Assembly: GCA_963514005.1 (NCBI GenBank)
Contig: OY740798.1
Coordinates: forward strand, 39,060,001 to 39,124,000
From: Raja brachyura
Taxonomy: Eukaryota
Length of the DNA: 64,000 nt
Direction: 5' to 3'
The notes beneath the pieces are model-generated. The model was not told the origin of the DNA, searched no databases, and saw only the letters and a list, made by a program, of their open reading frames with translations. This document shows, piece by piece, positions 6,011 through 63,925 of the stretch (positions are counted from its first letter, which is position 1; each line of letters starts with the position of its first letter). The translations under genes were made by a program, and so were the position numbers.

Positions 6011-7660
6011 CCAAAGTCAAACAAAGTCAAAGTCAAACAAACTTTATTGTCATTTAGAAATACATTGATACATGCAGTTCCAAACGAAATTACGTTGCAT
6101 TTGGCTCCCTGTGCAACACAATAAAATTAACCGAAGGATAGGCATGGGTGAGAAGGATAAATAGACACTAGTGGCAGCCCATTACATGGCATTCAGGAGT
6201 CTGATGGCTCGTGGGAAGAAGCTGTTGCAGAACCTTGATGTTCTGCTCCTTATGCTGCGGTATCTTTTTCCCGAGGGCAGCAGAGTGAACAGTCCGTGAT
6301 GGAGATGTGTGGGGTCTTTTATAATACTGCTGGCCTTATACACACAGCGTTTGGTCGCAATATCCCCGATTGAGGGGAGAGAGGACCCGATGATTTTTTC
6401 CGCTGTCCTCACCACTCTCTGCACAGACTTCCAGTCGGAGGCTCTACAGTCCCCAAACCAGACAGAGATACAGCTGGTCAGAATACTCTCTATGGTGCCC
6501 CTGTAGAAAGTAGTGAGGATGGGATGGGGGAGATGAGCTCTTCTCATCCGGCGCAGAAAGTGCAACCGCTGCTGCGCTCTCTTAACAGTTGATGAGATGT
6601 TATTCGACCAGGTCAGACTGTTAGTGATCTGCACCCCCAGGAACTTTGTGCTACTGACCACCTCCACATCGCTGTCGTTGATGTGAAGTGGTGTGGGACT
6701 GTGCCGGGTTTTCCTGAAGTCGACGATAATCTCCTTTGTTTTCTCGACATTCAGGATCAGGTTGTTCGTATTGCACCAGTCCGCCAGTTGTTTCACCTCC
6801 TCCCTGTAAGCCAGCTCATTGTCGTCCCTGATGAGGCCCACCACTGTTGTGTCATCTGCGTACTTCATGATGTGGTTTGTACTAAACCTGGCACAACAGT
6901 CGTGAGTCATCAGGGTGAACAGCAGTGGACTCAGGACACAGCCCTGAGGGGAGCCGGTGCTCAGAGAGATGGTATTGGAGGTGTTATTTCCAACCCTCAC
7001 AGACTGAGGTCTGTCAGTGAGGAAGTCCAGTAGCCAGTTACACATGGGGGTGCCGAGGCCCAATGGAACCAGTTTGCTTATCAGGTGCTGTGGGATAATG
7101 GTGTTGAATGCTGAACTGAAATCCACGAACAGCATTCGCACATAGGTGTTTTTCTCCTCTAAATGTTCCAGGCTCAGATGGAGTACGGAGGATATAGCGT
7201 CCTCTGTGGAGCGGTTTGGCCTGTAAGCAAACTGGTATGGGTCAAGTGTGGAGGGGAGTCTGGAGGTGATGTGGTCCCTGACCAGCCTCTCGAAGCACTT
7301 CATCATTATGGGGGTGAGTGCTACAGGGCGGTAGTCATTGAGACATTGTATGTTGGATTTTTTTGGCACAGGTATGATAGTGGCAGTCTTGAAACATAAT
7401 GGGACGACAGCCTGGTTCAGCGAGGTGTTAAATATGTCCGTAAGGACATGTGCCAGCTGATCAGCACATTCCCTGAGCACCCGCCCTGGTATGTTATCAG
7501 GGCCTGCCGCCTTTCGCGCGTTCACTCCTTTTAGGGTCCTCCGAACATCCACTATGTCAAGACTGAGTGCCTTTTCCTCACAATGAGGAATACCTTTGCT
7601 TGCAGGTGTGTTATTTAATGCCTCGAACCGACCAAAATAGTTGTTGAGTTCATTGAGCGA
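6011..7660 (-). mobile_element. Rex1/Babar-type non-LTR retrotransposon, 5'-truncated, uninterrupted RT frame
   Basis: ORF 6182-7705 contains [47 protein letters not shown] and the C-terminus [10 protein letters not shown]...[12 protein letters not shown]. It has a short tandem-repeat tail (TTTGAC)n at ~6011-6040 after AATAAA. Confidence 0.92.
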
Positions 7661-7796
7661 GGTCATCCACGACCTCTCAAACCCTCCACTAAAGGATGCC
7701 TTCATCCATTAACTGAGGTGACTGGAGACAGGTTCCACTATAAGTGGACCTAAGTGGAGCATGTTTTTGTTAAACCCATCATGTTGCCTATTAAGT

Positions 7797-51338: not shown

Positions 51339-51557
51339 CTACTTGGTGTCTAAATTACTGTCACAGTTCACTGGTGAAGGTTCAATGGTGGGAGAGTTCA
51401 TATAGTCTGTGGGGTTGTTGACTGCCTCATCTGTTGGTGTAGCATTTTTTGTGAGCTGTATACCCTGGATCAGGAGTATCAGCTGTTTTACTTTCTCCAA
51501 CGAGGACTGCATATCCTTTTGTCGAGCGAGCAATGTATTCTTAGTCTCCATACATTT
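51339..51557 (-). CDS. PHF21A: PHF21A last coding exon (KCMETKNTLLARQKDMQSSLEKVKQLILLIQGI...LDTK*)
   Basis: ctttag|AAA, stop TAG at 51341-51339. The coiled-coil tail matches recalled PHF21A. Confidence 0.94.
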   Translation of the reverse strand, partial: KCMETKNTLLARQKDMQSSLEKVKQLILLIQGIQLTKNATPTDEAVNNPTDYMNSPTIEPSPVNCDSNLDTK

Positions 51558-53403: not shown

Positions 53404-53507
53404 CGTTATGGAATTACTCAGTTGTTTAACTTTATGTTCCAACTGTTCTCGCTCCTGCTTTAGTTCTGCACTCCACTTTAACAACTTTAGTTTTTCTTCT
53501 TCTTTTG
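53404..53507 (-). CDS. PHF21A: PHF21A exon ([35 protein letters not shown])
   Basis: cctcag|CA...ACG|gtgagt, 104 nt. Confidence 0.95.
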
Positions 53508-54422: not shown

Positions 54423-55336
54423 ATAGACAATAGGTGCGGGAGTAGGCCATTTGCCCTTCGAGCTAGCACCGCCATTCAATGTGATCATGGCTGATCATCC
54501 CCAATCAGTACCCCGTTCCTGCCTTCTCCCCATTTCCCCTGACTCCGCTATTTTTAAGAGCCCTTCTCTAGCTCTCTCTTGAAAGAATCCAGAGAACCTG
54601 CCTCCACCACCCTCTGAGGCAGAGAATTCCACAGACTCGCCACTCTCTGTGAGAAAAAGTGTTTCCTCGTCTCCGTTCTAAATGGCTTACTCCTTATTCT
54701 TAAACTGTGGCCCCTGATTCTGGACTCCCGCAACTTCGGGATAATGTTTCCTGCCTTTAGTGTGTCCTTAACAATATTATATGTTGCAATGAGATCTCCT
54801 TTCATCCTTCTAAACTCCAGAGTGTACAAGCCCATCTGCTCCATTCTTTCAGCATATGACAGTCCTGCCATCCCGGGAATTAACCTTGTAAACCTACGCT
54901 GCACTCCCTCAATAGCAAGAATGTCCTTCCTCAAATTAGGGGACCAAAACTGCACACAATACTCCAGGTGTGGTCTCACTAAGGCTCTGTACAACTGCAG
55001 AAGGACCTCTTTGCTCCTATATTCGATTCCTCTTGTTATAAAGGCCAACATGCCATTCGCTTTCTTCACTGCCTGCTCTACCTGCATGCTTACTTTCATA
55101 GACTGATGTACAAGGACCCCCAGATCCCGTTGTACTTCCCCGTTTCCCAACTTGACACCATTTATATAGTAATCTGCCTTCCTGTTTTTGCAACCGAAGT
55201 GGATAACCTCACATTTATCCGCATTAAACTTCATCTGCCATGCATCTGTCCACTCGTCCAACCTGTCCAAGTCACCCTGCATTCTCATAGCATCTTCCTC
55301 AGTTCACACTGCCACCCAGCTTTGTGTCATCTGCAA
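54423..55336 (-). mobile_element. CR1 LINE 3' ~0.9 kb with a long open frame
   Basis: ORF 54554-55288 (244 aa; WQMKFNADKC, VRPHLEYCVQFWSP) plus the 3' UTR and tail. Confidence 0.93.
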
Positions 55337-55548: not shown

Positions 55549-55624
55549 CAGCCTTGTAGGCAATATAAGAATGAACGATTGCTAATGTCCCAGGCCATGG
55601 GATTGCTTCTTCCTTTTTCAGAAT
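55549..55624 (-). CDS. PHF21A: PHF21A exon ([26 protein letters not shown])
   Basis: ttttag|ATT...G|gtaaga, 76 nt. Confidence 0.96.
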
Positions 55625-56486: not shown

Positions 56487-56642
56487 CTGCTCCTGACATT
56501 TAGGACAAATCCACATTCCTTTGGGAATGGCTTTTAATGGCGGGTCCAGGCACTCCAGGTGATACACACGAGAACAAGTGTCACACATCAGCAGCTGTCC
56601 ACTACGTCGACACACAGAGCAGAAATCCTCATGGATGTCACC
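56487..56642 (-). CDS. PHF21A: PHF21A PHD-finger exon ([52 protein letters not shown])
   Basis: gatag|GGT...CAG|gtgtgg, 156 nt. C4HC3 PHD finger with the HED and LLMC residues of the H3K4me0-reading BHC80 PHD. Confidence 0.97.
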
Positions 56643-58084
56643 CTATCAAAAAACAAAGTTAAATAATCATACACAATTTAAGGTATAACTCTGGGTTTTA
56701 ATTTTTAACTTTTGCTAAGTTATTATTTAAGTGACTCCCAATGTGGGAGGCACATATCAAAGAAAAAAAGATAGCCTACCACTAGAACATCCATACCACT
56801 GGGAACCCTGCCCGTGAGAACCAAGTTTAGGTGTTCCACTAGAACCTATCTTAACCTAACTTGTGCTATGTCCTAAAATGGAAGGAAAAATTGGGTTGAG
56901 TAGCAAAAATCCTAAACGGCACCGATAAAACCCTGCTTGTGATTTTTTAACCAAGGAGTACAAGTACCACTCTTGGAAATGCCAGAGGGCATTTCCTTAC
57001 TTATTCCTCTTATTTAGAGTTATTGCAGCTAGAAGTACAACTCTGTATAAACTGTTCAAAGAATAAAAGGTAAGTTTGAAGTAAGCTTTTGCAGTTATTG
57101 TACTGATATCTGACATATACAATGCACACTGTATCTTGTTTTTTTTTAAAAGGTGAAAAATTAAATGAATGAATGAAAAATGATTAAATAAATTCAACAA
57201 AGGTAGCTGTGATTAGTTGCACTGTGGACAGGCAATCAATAGAATTCGAGGTTTTCCGCAAATAAGTCAATCAGTTTCTCTTTTTGCTTCATATGCCAAT
57301 TGGAACACGTCTTTAGCACTCTACTGCATTCCTCTGCTAACATTGCTGACAGTATTTTCCAGTCCAAAGAAGGCTGAGGTGGTGCTTTTAGTTTTGAATC
57401 CTAGTCATCTTTGAAATAAAATCTCTCTTCGGCTTCATTGCTTTGAGAGAGAACATACATTTGAAGTAAATAAATACACTCACAGACAAGGTTGTGTTTT
57501 TTGTGATGTTTTCAACGTTGTTTGCCTCATCTTGCAGCTTGCTGACAGGGCCCCTTTGTAAAGTAGCCGTTGTGGCTAAATAGGGCAAACCCTAGTTAAA
57601 GATGGTTTAAAGTAAAGAAAAATAAAATAAATTTGCAATTGTCCATTTATGGCCTTACATGTTAACCCATCTAGTTTCTTCTACATTCTCTGTGTGACGT
57701 TCCAAAAATACAGCGCAGCAGTGGTCATATTCAGAATCTGTAAAAACAGATTCTCATACACAGCTGATATGAATTTTCACACATTGTTGTCAAATTTTCA
57801 TTAAAATTATTCAGTTCTTATTGAGCACACACAAAACTCGGGTTCAGATCCAGTATAGCAACTAAATTTTAATCGACATTTGAAACTGAAAGCTTGACCA
57901 GTTAATCCTAAATGTGTATAATATTTCAATATGGATAACATTGAGAATGGAGATCAGTAATTAATATTCAAATTGTAATATAATAACATTAAAAAGTGCA
58001 ATTCATTCATACCCACAAGCCACATATCTTCAATGATATCATGGTTTAAATCATTGAAAGCTTCCTGTTTTGTTGTACAACTTT

Positions 58085-58280: not shown

Positions 58281-59479
58281 TATGTTGTGCAACTCTAGGT
58301 CTTTAAACAATTTTTTCATTGACAAGAGTCCTACTTCAGACGTTTCTAATTAATATAATTGACTATCTATATTTTGCATCAACAGATTTCTAAGTGATGT
58401 TTTTCACCAATGTAACATCTGCCTGAAGTAAATTACAGCGTGTTGGAATAACATCAGTTCAACTACATTCCCCAAATTGCAATTTCCACACAATGACCAA
58501 ATGATTTTCCCAGTACATACAACTGATGATTAATTCTCTAGGCATTAACCACAGTTCACAAAGCATTGACAAAAGCCAACTTGTTCATGAATGAATTATC
58601 ATGAAATATCAAGTGGCTAATTAATTTGAAAACATTGAAGTTTATGAGCACCTGTAAATCAAAATTCTATGCAGCAGAGTTAGGGGGGGGGGGGGGAAAT
58701 GTCAACTCACCTTGGCAGCGATGTCAATGATGGGATGGGGAAGGAAATATTATTTGACTGTGACCCAGTATATTTAGGTGAGGAGTAGCTATACATAGTA
58801 TAGCTATACTAAACAAGTATATTTACGTGAGGAATAGCTATACATAGTTTGCTCCAATATGCTTTAGCCGTTAAAAGTTACTAATCACTATGAATACATT
58901 AATGCCATCTTTGAACTAAAATTCATACTGTTAAACAACATTGTGGAAATTGGGTGAGGCCATTCAAAACCATATTCAGTCCTCACACCTGAAAGCAAAG
59001 TTTCATTCTCTGTAATGGGCTAGATTTAAAGCAATAGAACTGTTATTTTTGTTATTATAATCTATTTTATAACATAGATTATAAATAGTGAACATGGAGG
59101 AATCATTGGTATTCAGTCATATAATAATAATAATGCATAATAATAAAATATAGTCCATTCTGTTAATAACATGAACACATTCTCCAAAACACCAAAAATC
59201 TAGACAAAACAACCACAGTTGCAATATATGATTCACTTTGCATTGCTTATAATAATCATGTGTTGTAGGGTAGAGCTGTTGGCTTTGTTTAGTAACTGCA
59301 TGCATAGAAGAGAGGTGGAAAATAATGCGGCTGAAGGAAATGGAGGGGTTGGGAAAGCTAAAGTTTTAGTTCAAGTTTTTGTTATTCCAATTTTATACAC
59401 CATCATCCATGATAAAATATTACATAAGTTGTCAAAATTAATATTCTGGCTTAGTAACCCTGTGAAGTTTGTAACTTAC

Positions 59480-59634
59480 ATCTACAGAGCTGGGACTGGA
59501 TGCAGACTGTGTTGGAGCAGCAAAACTGAGCAAATTCTCTGTTTTTTCGAAATCTGGGGAGGCGGGATGACTTGGAGGGGAGGAAGGTGCCATTGCCCCC
59601 AGACCCAACACGTTAGTGTACTTAGGAGGGCGAC
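59480..59634 (-). CDS. PHF21A: PHF21A canonical AT-hook exon (GRPPKYTNVLGLGAMAPSSPPSHPASPDFEKTE...SSVD)
   Basis: gtgtag|GT...GAT|gtaagt, 155 nt, phase 1 to phase 0, GRP AT-hook core. Confidence 0.93.
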
Positions 59635-59678
59635 CTACACGTAAGAAACAAAAACACAAAATATATACAAACACATAC

Positions 59679-59701
59679 CTTCAACCACTGATCCTCATTG
59701 G
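59679..59701 (-). CDS. PHF21A: PHF21A alternative 23-nt microexon (ANEDQWLK)
   Basis: Pyrimidine tract...ggcag|CCAATGAGGATCAGTGGTTGAAG|gtatgt. It has the same phases as the AT-hook exon and resembles the recalled mammalian neuronal microexon peptide ANEEHWPK. Confidence 0.88.
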
Positions 59702-60261
59702 CTGCCATTGAGGAAAGAGAAAGGAGGAGCATAGACAGAGTTAATAAACAATCATAAGTTAAAATGTCAGTGTTAATAAACAATCATGTTAAAAGGTATA
59801 CAAATTAAGTATTTTAAATTTCCAAATACACCACTTAAAATTTGAATTTTAAGCGAGCAATCAAGAGTTGTAGATCAACTATCTGAATGTCCTCAAAATC
59901 AAACCAGGATCTGTTTTAAAGGTCTTTTAGTAAGATTACCCTACCATATGTTGGTACACCATTACATTTGCACTACAGCAGCTGTTACAATCCTAATTTT
60001 ACTACATCTTATTTTTGATAAATTTAAAATAATTTAGTTTAAAAAAAAGTAAAAGCCACCACAAATAGCTTTTTAGAAAAAAACTCCATCAAAAAATTAT
60101 ATTGAGGAAGATTGGCCTTAATAAAACAAGAACACATATATTTGATACCACTCCACAATAGTGAACATGGAAGAATCATCGGTATTCAGTCATTTATAGG
60201 CAAGCTTGAGTTAATTATCCTTTTTCATATGTACCACATTCGTCAATTTTTATTAGAATTT

Positions 60262-60648
60262 GGGGCGACACAGTGGCACAGAGGTAGAGTTGTTGGATGA
60301 TCAGCCATGATCATATTGAATGGCGGTGCAGGCTCGAAGGGCCGAATGGACTACTCCTGCACCTAGTTTCTATCTTTCTATGTTACATAGACCTCGGTTC
60401 AATCCTGACTACGGATGCTGCCTGTACGGAGTTTGTACGTTCTCCCTGTGACCGTGTGGGCTTATTCCAATTGCTCTGGTTTACTCTCACACTCCAAAGG
60501 GATACAGGTTTGTATGCTAATTGGCTTTCGTAAAATTGTAAATTGTCCCTAGTCTGTAGGATAGTGCTAGTGTAAGGGGTGATCACTGGTCGTTTGGACT
60601 AAGTGGGCCGAAGGGTCTGTTTCCACGCTGTATCTCTAAAGTCTTAAG
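60262..60648 (+). mobile_element. HE1/V-SINE-like SINE interrupted by a CR1 3' tail (~60295-60383)
   Basis: Head GGGGCGACACAGTGGCACAGAGGTAGAG, then a CR1 3' UTR, then CGGTTCAATCC, the V-domain and a CR1-like tail. Confidence 0.85.
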
Positions 60649-61267
60649 TCATTGGCTTGTTACCAATATTTGTGAAACTAGATGCTGAATACAAGTGATT
60701 TTCAGAAGAAACTTATAGTTATTAAACTTTAGAGAATTTAAACTTGTCCAAAGTGTTATTCATCATTTTTATCCCAGGAACAAACTTTGAAATGGGATGA
60801 ATGTAATGAATTTGTGCAGAATTACTGCATTAACATGACTTTCATTTTTCAAACAAACTTAATTAGAACAATCACTAATAAATTTCTTCCACATCAACAT
60901 TCATAAATGTTTCCACAGCTCTTATCAACTATGGCTAAAACGTTAATTCTGCTCAAATTTTAGCAGTTCGATAAAAGTATTGTACAACTAAAGGCAATAC
61001 AAAATGTTGTGACTTTTTTGCTGCCATTTTTATGTAATTAATATTATAGATAAAAACAATAGAGCCACATGATAGATAAAATTAAGGTTAAACACTGAAG
61101 ATAGCAATTCAGCTCAATAAGGGTTATCGCTGAAAAAAGATGTTCTAATGTTTCTACTCCTTTATTGTAGGAAATATGCAGATGTGTGAATGTTTTGTAT
61201 TGTTTTGTATAATTTATTATCACTTGTTTGTTTAACGATAATAGAAAAAATCTAAAAAATGCAGATG

Positions 61268-61990
61268 TGTATGAAGGAACTGCAGATTCTGGTTTAATCC
61301 GTAGACACAAAAAGCTGGAGTAACTCAGCGGATCAGATAGCATCTCTGGAGAAAAGGAATAGGTGACGTTTCGGGTCGAGACCCTTCTTCCGACTGAGAG
61401 TTGTGAATTTGTGGAATTCTCTGCCTCAGAAGGCAGTGGAGGCCGATTCACTGAATGCATTCAAGGGAGGGTTAGACAGAGCTCATAGGGCTAGCGGAAT
61501 CAAGGGGCATGGGGCGAAGGCAGGAACGGGGTACTGATTGTGGATGATCAGCCATGATCACACTGAACGGCGGTGCTGGCTCGAAGGGCCGAATGACCTA
61601 TTCCTGCACCTATTGTCCATGTATCTATGAAAGGGAAACGAGAGATATAGATGGTGATGTAGAGATAGAGAACAAATGAATGAAATATTTGCAAAAAAGT
61701 AACAATGATAAATATACCAGGCCATTGTTAGCTGTGTGCTAGGTAAGAACGGGAACAATGAGACTCAATAAACGACTTTGAAGCTGGTACCGCTGGGTGG
61801 GGAAGGGACAGGGAGAGAGAGGGGTGCAGGGGTGACGTGAAGTTAGAGAAATCAATATCAACCACTGGGTTGTAAGTTGCCCAAGCGATATATGAGATGC
61901 TGTTCCTCCAATTTGCCTATGGCCTCACTCTGACAATGGAAGAGACCTAGGACAGAAAGGTCAGTGTGGGAATGAAAAAGGGAACTAAAG
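61268..61990 (-). mobile_element. Penelope-like element 3' part with a nested CR1 tail (61398-61628, +)
   Basis: GIY-YIG C-terminal KLEEQHLIYRLGNLQPSG..IDFSNF at ~61840-61915, a pyrimidine-rich UTR, and a terminus with a mutated hammerhead core (CGGAAGA) at ~61365-61394. Confidence 0.85.
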
Positions 61991-62229
61991 AATTAAAATG
62001 CCAATGTTGGAAATCTGAAAAAACCTAGAAGATACTGCAGAGATTACGTAAGTCAGTCACCAGCTGTGGAAAGAGTGATCATTTCAGGTCAAAGACCTTT
62101 TGCCAGAATTAGGGAAGAGAAATAAAACATGTTGCAAAACAGATGGGGGCTTAATACATTGAATAAAAGGAATATATTTGATTGTGTGAGGTCAGGAGAC
62201 CCCCTGGGGCAAGCTTTTGAGGTCCAATG

Positions 62230-63925
62230 GATACACAAGAAATTGTAGATGCTTGAGAAACTTAGCGGGTCAAGCAGCATCCGTGGATGCGAAGGACAAA
62301 CAAAATTCCAGGCTGTCACCCTTCATCAGTCTAATTGGAGTAAGGGAAAGAAATATGGAAAAGAGAGGTGGGGATGACTTAAAGCCTGGCAAGTGATAGG
62401 TAGATACAGGTGAGGGGGGGAGGGCTGATTGGCATTTGCATGGAATAAGTTACAAAAGGGTATTGATAACAAAAGGAGATGAAGAGTGAAATGTAAAGCC
62501 GGGAGGGGGGAGGGGGGGAGAATGTGTGTGGAAGGTGACATGCGGAGGACAATAAAGGGAAGTATGGAGCATGAGGAAGAGGGGAAAGGAGCAGGATAAA
62601 AGTGGTGGTGGGGAAATATAGGCGCACTGGAGTGGGGGGTGGGGGAAGAGGAAAGAAAAGGGATGTAGGGGGATATTACTTGAAATTAGAGAATTCAATG
62701 TGCATACTGTTGGGTTGTAAGCTACCCAAGCGGAGTATGCGGTGCTGTTCTTCCAGTTTGGGAGTAGCCTCATTCTGGCAATGGAGGAAGTCAAGGAATG
62801 CAAGATTGGTATGGGAATGGAAAGGGAAGTTCAAATGGTTAACAACCGGATGCTACAGCAGTCCTTGGCGAACAGAGTCCAGCGTTTGGCAAACTGCCTA
62901 CTTAGTCTATGCTTGGTTTAGCCAATATAAAGGAGGACCCATCAGGAGCAATGCAATACATGAGGATGGAAGAGGTGCAGGTGAATCTCTTTCTCATCTG
63001 AAAGAACTGCTAAGGTCCCTGGATGGAAGTGAGAGAGATGTGTTACATTTCCTTTGGTTACACGGGAAAGTACCTGGGGAGTGGTCGGTAGGGATTAGCA
63101 AACCAAGGAGTTGCTTAGATAATGGTATCCACCGTAAATGGAAAGGGATGAGGACGGGAAGATGTGACTAGTGCTGGGATCCTGTTGAAGATGGCAGAAA
63201 TGTCAGAAAATGATGGGTGAAAGGAGAGTTGGAGGGAAACTCTCTATTTGTTCCATCTGTGGGAGAAAGAGTTACAGCAGAACTGTTGGATACAGAGGAG
63301 ATGCAGGTGAGGATTCCATCCACAACAGCAAGGAGGAAACTGTTTAATGACGAATGAGGACATATCAGATGTGCTAGATTGAAAAGCCTACTCTTGGGGG
63401 CAGATGTGGCGGAGACAGAGAGATTGAGAGGGATGGTCTCCTTGCAAGAGGCAGGGTGGGAGCAGGTGTAGTAAGGTAACTAAGGGCTAAGTGGCTTTGT
63501 AGTAGGAATCAATCAATAGTCTGTCCCCTGAAATAGAGACAGTCATTGAGAAATGGTGAATGGGGTATCAGAAATAGTCCAAATGAATTTGAGGGCAGGG
63601 TGGAAGTTGGTAGTAAAGTTCATGAAATCACTGATTGTGCACGGGTCCAGAAAGTAGCCCCAATTGTGGAAGTAGCAGAGAAAGATCTGGGGAATTGTGT
63701 CGGGATACATTCGAAATAAGGAGTGTTATACCTAACCAACAAAAAGAGAGGCATACGTGGGGCCAACAACATTGCCCATGGCTACATATTTAACATGATG
63801 AAAGTGATAAGAGTCAAAAAAGAAGTTGTTAAGGGTGATTCCCCCAGGCGGAAGAGACTTAGTTTTAATTGGAGGGTTGAGTTGTTGTTCAAGGAATAAA
63901 CAGAGAGGCCCAAGGCCTTCCTGAT
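62230..63925 (-). mobile_element. Decayed Penelope-like element (RT + GIY-YIG endonuclease)
   Basis: RT motif ITLNNFFFDSYHF...VAMG...GPTYASLFVG (ORF 63732-63953), endonuclease end KLEEQHRILRLGSLQPNSMHIEFSNFK* (~62678-62760), and a terminus with CUGAUGAAG at ~62320-62329. Confidence 0.88.

Follow-up and report, generated by a model that had tools for sequence, protein, structure and literature searches.

We found that the skate Raja brachyura carries an alternative exon pair in the gene PHF21A. Within the analysed stretch of 64 000 nt (the window), a 23-nt microexon and a 155-nt exon encoding an AT-hook lie 44 nt apart on the reverse strand, and by homology the locus is the skate orthologue of the neuronal microexon/AT-hook pair of mammalian PHF21A. 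Anatomy of the pair, its reading frames, the annotated isoforms and their conservation were observed directly. For neural bias in skate, regulator, branch position, steric block, NMD and loss of DNA binding we infer the following account; as a whole (exclusive pair, neural microexon, donor/branch-point overlap and NMD as back-up), we give it a probability of roughly 0.72. An mRNA would take either the AT-hook exon, the likely default, or the microexon, likely chosen in neurons and likely under control of SRRM3/4. The branch point of the AT-hook exon would most likely be situated 13–17 nt behind the microexon donor; U1 bound to this donor and U2 bound to the branch point would contend for one stretch of RNA, preventing efficient splicing of the spacer. 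A transcript that contains both exons, retains the spacer or lacks both exons would run into a premature stop and be passed to NMD. With the microexon, DNA binding through the AT-hook would be lost, as in mammals. In cartilaginous fishes an additional 108-nt exon usually follows either choice, with the PHD exon being optional.

In human and mouse the switch itself is established, along with its neuronal use and its consequence for DNA binding (available text of PMC11864812, PMC11605454 and PMC12234916; related papers, likewise cited from parts of their text, are PMC4463651, PMC13388176, PMC13338203 and bioRxiv 2025.11.05.686847). Since the switch is known and the exon is already present in RefSeq models of close relatives, finding the skate exon is ordinary; the parts worth testing are the branch-point-overlap mechanism and the history of the paralog PHF21B.

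Anatomy of the exon pair and its annotated isoforms

The features of the locus are as follows.

G000:C18:39126812-39126872, beyond the window: upstream exon, 61 nt, ends in phase 1
59736..59794, no strand assigned: tandem duplication, 32 nt in 1.9 copies, repeats the branch-motif stretch
59702..59745, reverse strand: microexon 3′ splice-site region with TTAAC branch motif and long pyrimidine tract
59679..59701, reverse strand: microexon, 23 nt, ANEDQWLK, bounded by AG...GT, phase 1 in and phase 0 out
59635..59678, reverse strand: spacer, 44 nt, GT...AG
59480..59634, reverse strand: AT-hook exon, 155 nt, GRPPKY...SVD, phase 1 in and phase 0 out
57484..57591, reverse strand: 108-nt exon, GLPYLAT...TTLS, 36 aa, phase 0, in frame (annotated skate protein mapped onto the locus)
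56487..56642, reverse strand: PHD-finger exon, 156 nt (2PUY match)
55549..55624, reverse strand: coding exon after the PHD exon
53404..53507, reverse strand: coiled-coil coding exon, KEEEKLKLL...
51339..51557, reverse strand: final coding exon, ends at the stop codon

Exon lengths, spacer length and phases were as given in the original prediction. The upstream exon and the AT-hook exon together complete RRR-GRP; with the microexon the product reads RRR-ANE instead, the ANEDQWLK translation including the G of the upstream exon. The skate locus has, directly 5′ of the GRPPKY exon, a 23-nt exon in phase 1-0 encoding ANE..W.K. In in-silico splicing the frame was preserved by either exon alone. Joining the two, predicted earlier to cause a frameshift, does so and leads to a stop at 59484-59482; retention of the spacer gives a stop at 59624-59622, and skipping of both exons likewise produces a stop.

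That the gene is PHF21A, as had been proposed, was upheld by three observations. RefSeq PHF21A proteins of Leucoraja erinacea and Amblyraja radiata agree with the AT-hook exon at 100% identity; comparison of the PHD exon with the solved structure of the PHF21A finger (2PUY) gave a match with E 1e-32; and the skate gene clusters with human and pigeon PHF21A (support 95/94) in a tree of 22 rows hand-picked among the matches.

Both forms appear in stored gene models of species related to the skate. RRR-ANEDQWLK is read in 21 stored RefSeq proteins from 13 shark and ray species (e.g. XP_055505712.1), with the peptide ANEDQWLK identical in all 21; a microexon with a peptide conserved across 13 chondrichthyan species is, on this comparison, not a product of chance. 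The expectation that annotation pipelines would easily miss the exon was thus wrong for cartilaginous fishes, and a teleost microexon form is annotated as well (Chanos P0235, ANEEALPE). No protein contained the microexon and AT-hook peptides together among 232 stored ones, a set biased by the queries toward AT-hook or 108-nt-exon forms. In these models, both exons are used, never together in a coding isoform.

Exit of both exons onto the PHD exon had been predicted; the exit in phase 0 was correct, while the direct neighbourhood was not, as the 108-nt exon (57484-57591) intervenes. The AT-hook exon is followed by the 108-nt exon in 63 of the 65 stored chondrichthyan AT-hook proteins, and the microexon in 21/21 chondrichthyan microexon proteins; the latter were retrieved with the 108-nt exon or through clusters containing such a match, so that direct microexon-to-PHD forms would be invisible among them. 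The main junctions are likely to be 59679>57591 and 59480>57591, instead of the 59679>56642 and 59480>56642 proposed before. Used as a protein query, the 108-nt exon gave 39 matches among 43 candidates; 38 of the matches were named and all these came from cartilaginous fishes. The search was word-limited, and missed a Callorhinchus copy present in another search. In amniote and other vertebrate PHF21A-type representatives the AT-hook exon leads to the PHD exon directly, with no 108-nt exon; in the proteins compared, the exon is seen only in cartilaginous fishes, Callorhinchus included. The linker before the PHD finger is 36 aa longer with the 108-nt exon, in both isoforms. Many isoforms annotated in sharks and rays leave out the PHD exon without loss of frame, and both the AT-hook and the PHD finger are absent from seven stored proteins (P0183-P0189).

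Putative transcript data came from four of 18 runs, with contigs from relatives and no tissue labels; 12 of the 18 runs were only guessed to be RNA, the four used here are likewise of guessed type, and one of them (X1) was flagged ‘probably DNA’. For the microexon junctions the evidence is indirect, consisting of contig ends and lengths. In runs X2, X5 and X6 (three studies) contig pieces stop at the ends of the AT-hook and PHD exons, with further unaligned letters on at least one side of the exon ends. Run X5 has an AT-hook contig of 215 nt and a PHD contig of 216 nt. We take the assembly k to be 31, which is consistent with the 30-letter overhangs. A simulation with this k, in which the alternative exons are both spliced to the 108-nt exon and use of the PHD exon is optional, gave 215 and 216 nt and matched X5; neither the AT-hook exon only (408 and 216 nt) nor direct splicing of the microexon to the PHD exon (293 and 186 nt) produced a match.

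SINE/LINE copies at ~60280-63700 accounted for the dominant share of read depth in the window. Long open frames at 6185-7708 and 54557-55303 (reverse strand; 508 and 249 aa) are reverse-transcriptase-like LINE remnants. The first match in the ESM Atlas (0.89) is a lead only.

Spacer layout, exclusivity and control of the microexon

The skate spacer contains 26 T, six A and no G-triplet. Its adenosines are found at nt 3, 13, 15 and 17 after the donor and at −8 and −2 from the acceptor. The adenosines at nt 13–17 do not fit the YTNAY consensus, and the sole consensus site in the spacer has its A at −8 (59642), 37 nt after the donor.

When metagenome contigs were scanned for the pattern, two matches appeared. 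One of them (L019) was dropped as a chance match within a non-vertebrate ORF. The other (L020; contig Ga0181612_100246, 19 kb) is bird-type PHF21A genomic DNA, presumably host-derived; six stored proteins from birds show the same translation of the AT-hook exon. In L020 the microexon measures 23 nt (ANEDHWPK), the AT-hook exon 164 nt and the spacer between them 73 nt, subject to possible imprecision in its poly-T run. Adenosines of this spacer are at nt 3, 7, 8, 10 and 13 after the donor and at −9, −8, −6 and −2 from the acceptor, and a consensus YTNAY occurs at −8 here too, ~65 nt after the donor. In skate and bird, the −8 site is too near the acceptor for a usual branch point and is possibly a decoy or rarely used. 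Compared by eye, the first 17 bases of the L020 spacer are the same as in mouse, where the sequence can be deduced from a guide RNA given in the available text of PMC11605454. By published coordinates the human spacer is bounded at about 21–121 nt; the two spacers measured were those of skate and L020.

Branch points normally lie ~18–40 nt or more 5′ of the AG. The spacer adenosines at a usable distance are all within 17 nt of the microexon donor, in both the skate and L020. Candidate branch adenosines for the AT-hook exon are those at 59666, 59664 and 59662. As every usable adenosine is so close to the donor, exclusivity is likely to arise by overlap of donor and branch point (a steric block), with the frameshift stop as a back-up. 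A donor-to-branch distance of <50 nt serves as the criterion for potential steric interference in PMC5740500 (as far as its available text goes). Any adenosine in the skate spacer lies within 50 nt of the donor, and any branch point in this spacer would fall under the criterion, because the whole spacer is shorter than 50 nt; in L020 all adenosines except those ≤9 nt from the acceptor do so. In both loci the branch point is a predicted one. Judged by these two loci, the short spacer and adenosine layout are conserved between skate and bird, and the 44-nt length is not. The length of 44 nt, taken originally for the device that enforces exclusivity, is not supported in this role as a conserved feature: the L020 spacer has 73 nt, and introns as short as 43, 49 and 56 nt undergo splicing in human.

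It could also be that exclusivity owes nothing to geometry: neuronal factors would activate the microexon and repress the AT-hook exon via distal intron elements, and joined transcripts would be destroyed by NMD. We regard this as unlikely, though it has evidence to its credit. Ultra-short introns can be spliced, as just noted, and one TGCATG, which we take to be an RBFOX-type motif, is situated downstream of the pair at 59299-59304 (reverse strand). This hexamer, ~175 nt 3′ of the AT-hook exon, is the only copy between 55400 and the upstream exon. Exons of non-triplet length occur in 60% of human MXE clusters, and potential steric interference in only 9% (available text of PMC5740500). A human minigene lacking long intron stretches yielded in neurons predominantly products with both exons (PMC12234916); its authors attribute the co-inclusion to the removed intron sequence, and the text, so far as available, does not state whether the spacer was excised. 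On the other hand, deletion of the microexon alone in mouse restored the AT-hook form in neurons, at a comparable level (PMC11605454, available text), and exclusion therefore depends on the microexon in cis. Regulation with NMD as the sole cause also leaves aside that the short spacer and its adenosine layout were kept from skate to bird, that the other 10 introns measured in the skate gene are about 0.8–14 kb, and that G-triplets are absent from the skate spacer, unlike the G-rich sequence of 12 out of 15 validated ultra-short introns. In X1 a single contig has its end at 59674, where the simulation places it for use of the microexon acceptor with the spacer retained; this argues weakly in the same direction, as X1 is a single run flagged as probable DNA.

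Local RNA structure was rejected as a cause of exclusivity: for 181 nt, z = 0.63, and 145 of 200 shuffles fold as well. Of the original claim of mutual exclusivity, an exclusive pair with a frameshift back-up is what stands (0/232 proteins with both exons); ‘hard-wired’ is plausible, but at odds with co-inclusion in the human minigene. We found no description in print of donor/branch-point overlap for PHF21A; subscription journals and supplements beyond those read may contain one, and the appendix or main MXE table of PMC5740500, a source available in part, may already flag PHF21A for steric interference.

The choice of the microexon is likely to be under SRRM3/4 control in skate, by analogy with known targets. 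The TTAAC motif upstream of the skate microexon has its A at −40 (59741), a TGC occurs at −30, and there is no other AG in 69 nt; a UGC thus lies between branch motif and AG in a long AG-free tract. L020 has the same branch motif, with A at −40, and TGC at −28 and −6, the latter site reading TGGC in skate. TTAAC is present at −40 and −72 within the duplicated region, with another copy at −58. Phf21a splicing is altered in Srrm4-mutant mice (available text of PMC3464207). A history in which skates use the microexon with no neuronal bias, neuronal control having arisen later, seems to us very improbable. The lack of a TGC at −6 in skate, unlike L020, would agree with it, as would the apparently constitutive state of the paralogous PHF21B exon (see below) and transcript runs that carry no tissue labels. 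Still, the branch motif at −40, the upstream TGC and the AG-free tract are common to the skate and amniote exons, and this shared layout is the one described for SRRM3/4 microexons (bioRxiv 10.1101/2024.09.17.613571, in the part available). Genes with SRRM_C are also present in the skate genome, at three loci unsorted as to membership in SRRM2, SRRM3 or SRRM4. In a look for a microexon of KDM1A (LSD1) in skate, a SWIRM search and nine stretches did not reveal the gene.

The PHF21B paralog and the age of the switch

The original prediction dated the switch to at least the jawed-vertebrate ancestor, and its presence in skate, in the teleost Chanos, in the bird-type contig and in human, where the peptide of the PHF21A neuronal exon 14 is ANEEHWPK (available part of the PMC5740500 supplement), bears this out. 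The true age is probably greater, since a homologous exon is carried by the paralog PHF21B.

A second PHF21 gene is found in the skate genome (G000:C20), with a PHD 80% identical; in the 22-row tree it groups with PHF21B at 93/87, below the tool's mark for strong support. Its exon is the following.

C20:40769133-40769155, reverse strand: PHF21B 23-nt exon (locus L012), ANEELCWK, phase 1-0, AAG acceptor

Of 31 bases compared, splice sites included, this exon shares 26 with the PHF21A microexon; the runner-up within the 10 269-nt PHF21B interval reaches 17, and the highest score in 1000 shuffles is 21. Alligator PHF21B (KYO32327.1) has ANEDPCWK at the same place. Neither tblastn at E 100 nor a motif search revealed a remnant of the AT-hook exon or the 108-nt exon in the skate interval of 10 269 nt. 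Skipping of the PHF21B microexon results in a stop; the exon must therefore be constitutive for a full-length protein, and its regulated inclusion could, for the same reason, be an on/off switch of PHF21B through NMD.

Among 54 representative matches that have the upstream motif and PHD, an AT-hook is present in 27, a microexon-like peptide in 10, and neither of them in 17. AT-hook carriers with a name include Lingula, Crassostrea, Octopus, Sinanodonta, Ptychodera and one lamprey protein, and all 10 microexon-like rows are of vertebrate type by name, tree or sequence. The set was clustered, so invertebrate microexon isoforms could be hidden in it, and no row in it was recognised as amphioxus or tunicate. 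A second lamprey model (S4RRY4) reads DDPTWR before PHD; its placement with PHF21B (80/75) involves a long branch and gives no more than a hint.

Given that PHF21B has the homologous exon and invertebrate PHF21 has the AT-hook, the microexon is likely to have arisen before the PHF21A/B duplication. The simplest history would start from an old AT-hook, add the microexon prior to duplication and drop the AT-hook exon from PHF21B. A more specific proposal, on which we would bet neither for nor against, is that a single insertion of the microexon in early vertebrate PHF21, nearly atop the branch point of the older AT-hook exon, created a self-contained toggle, with recognition of the microexon blocking the exon for DNA binding; PHF21A kept it after the duplication, and PHF21B lost the AT-hook exon and became permanently a ‘neuronal-form’ reader. 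If true, a splicing switch was converted into a difference between paralogs. With the AT-hook old, the microexon new and PHF21B locked in the microexon state, the evolutionary direction would be defined; this history predicts PHF21B to be devoid of AT-hook DNA binding, with a possible functional overlap with neuronal PHF21A. In the literature, with listed papers judged by title, nothing was found on the history of the PHF21B microexon or AT-hook, or on the PHF21A exon in shark; subscription journals and further supplements may contain it.

Comparison with known systems

What the skate–bird comparison adds is a concrete and testable cause of exclusivity, the overlap of donor and branch point, which would bear on variant reading and on minigene results for PHF21A, an intellectual-disability gene.

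The closest known system is human and mouse PHF21A (BHC80) with exons nE14 and cE14; the human pair is MXE cluster 544 in the PMC5740500 supplement (part available). Skate has the same gene, exon order, 23-nt length and 1-0 phase, and the same ANE..W.K peptide replacing the GRP of the AT-hook, with a short spacer in both. In mammals the GRP-to-ANE change largely abolishes nucleosome binding (available text of PMC11864812). The AT-hook exon is 164 nt in human and mouse versus 155 nt in skate, and skate adds the 108-nt exon before the PHD finger as well as annotated PHD-skipping forms. Tissue pattern and function are known from the mammals, while the skate pair is known from sequence and gene models. 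The bird-type locus differs in its spacer of 73 nt versus 44 nt.

In PHF21B of skate and alligator the homologous exon, also 23 nt and in phase 1-0, stands ahead of the PHD exon; skate PHF21B differs in that no AT-hook exon was found, the microexon is needed for the frame and the acceptor is AAG.

MXEs with donor–branch proximity make up 57 of 629 human clusters (PMC5740500, in its available text). The skate pair resembles steric-interference MXEs in its spacer of <50 nt, and its non-triplet lengths would add an NMD back-up; it departs from them in that the exons are not mutual duplicates, differ 7-fold in length and have a predicted branch point.

Like neural microexons controlled by SRRM3/4, the skate exon is short (23 nt), with a distant branch motif, a long pyrimidine tract, an upstream TGC and a strong donor. 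It differs from them in having its TGC only at −30, and in being half of an exclusive pair rather than a frame-preserving cassette.
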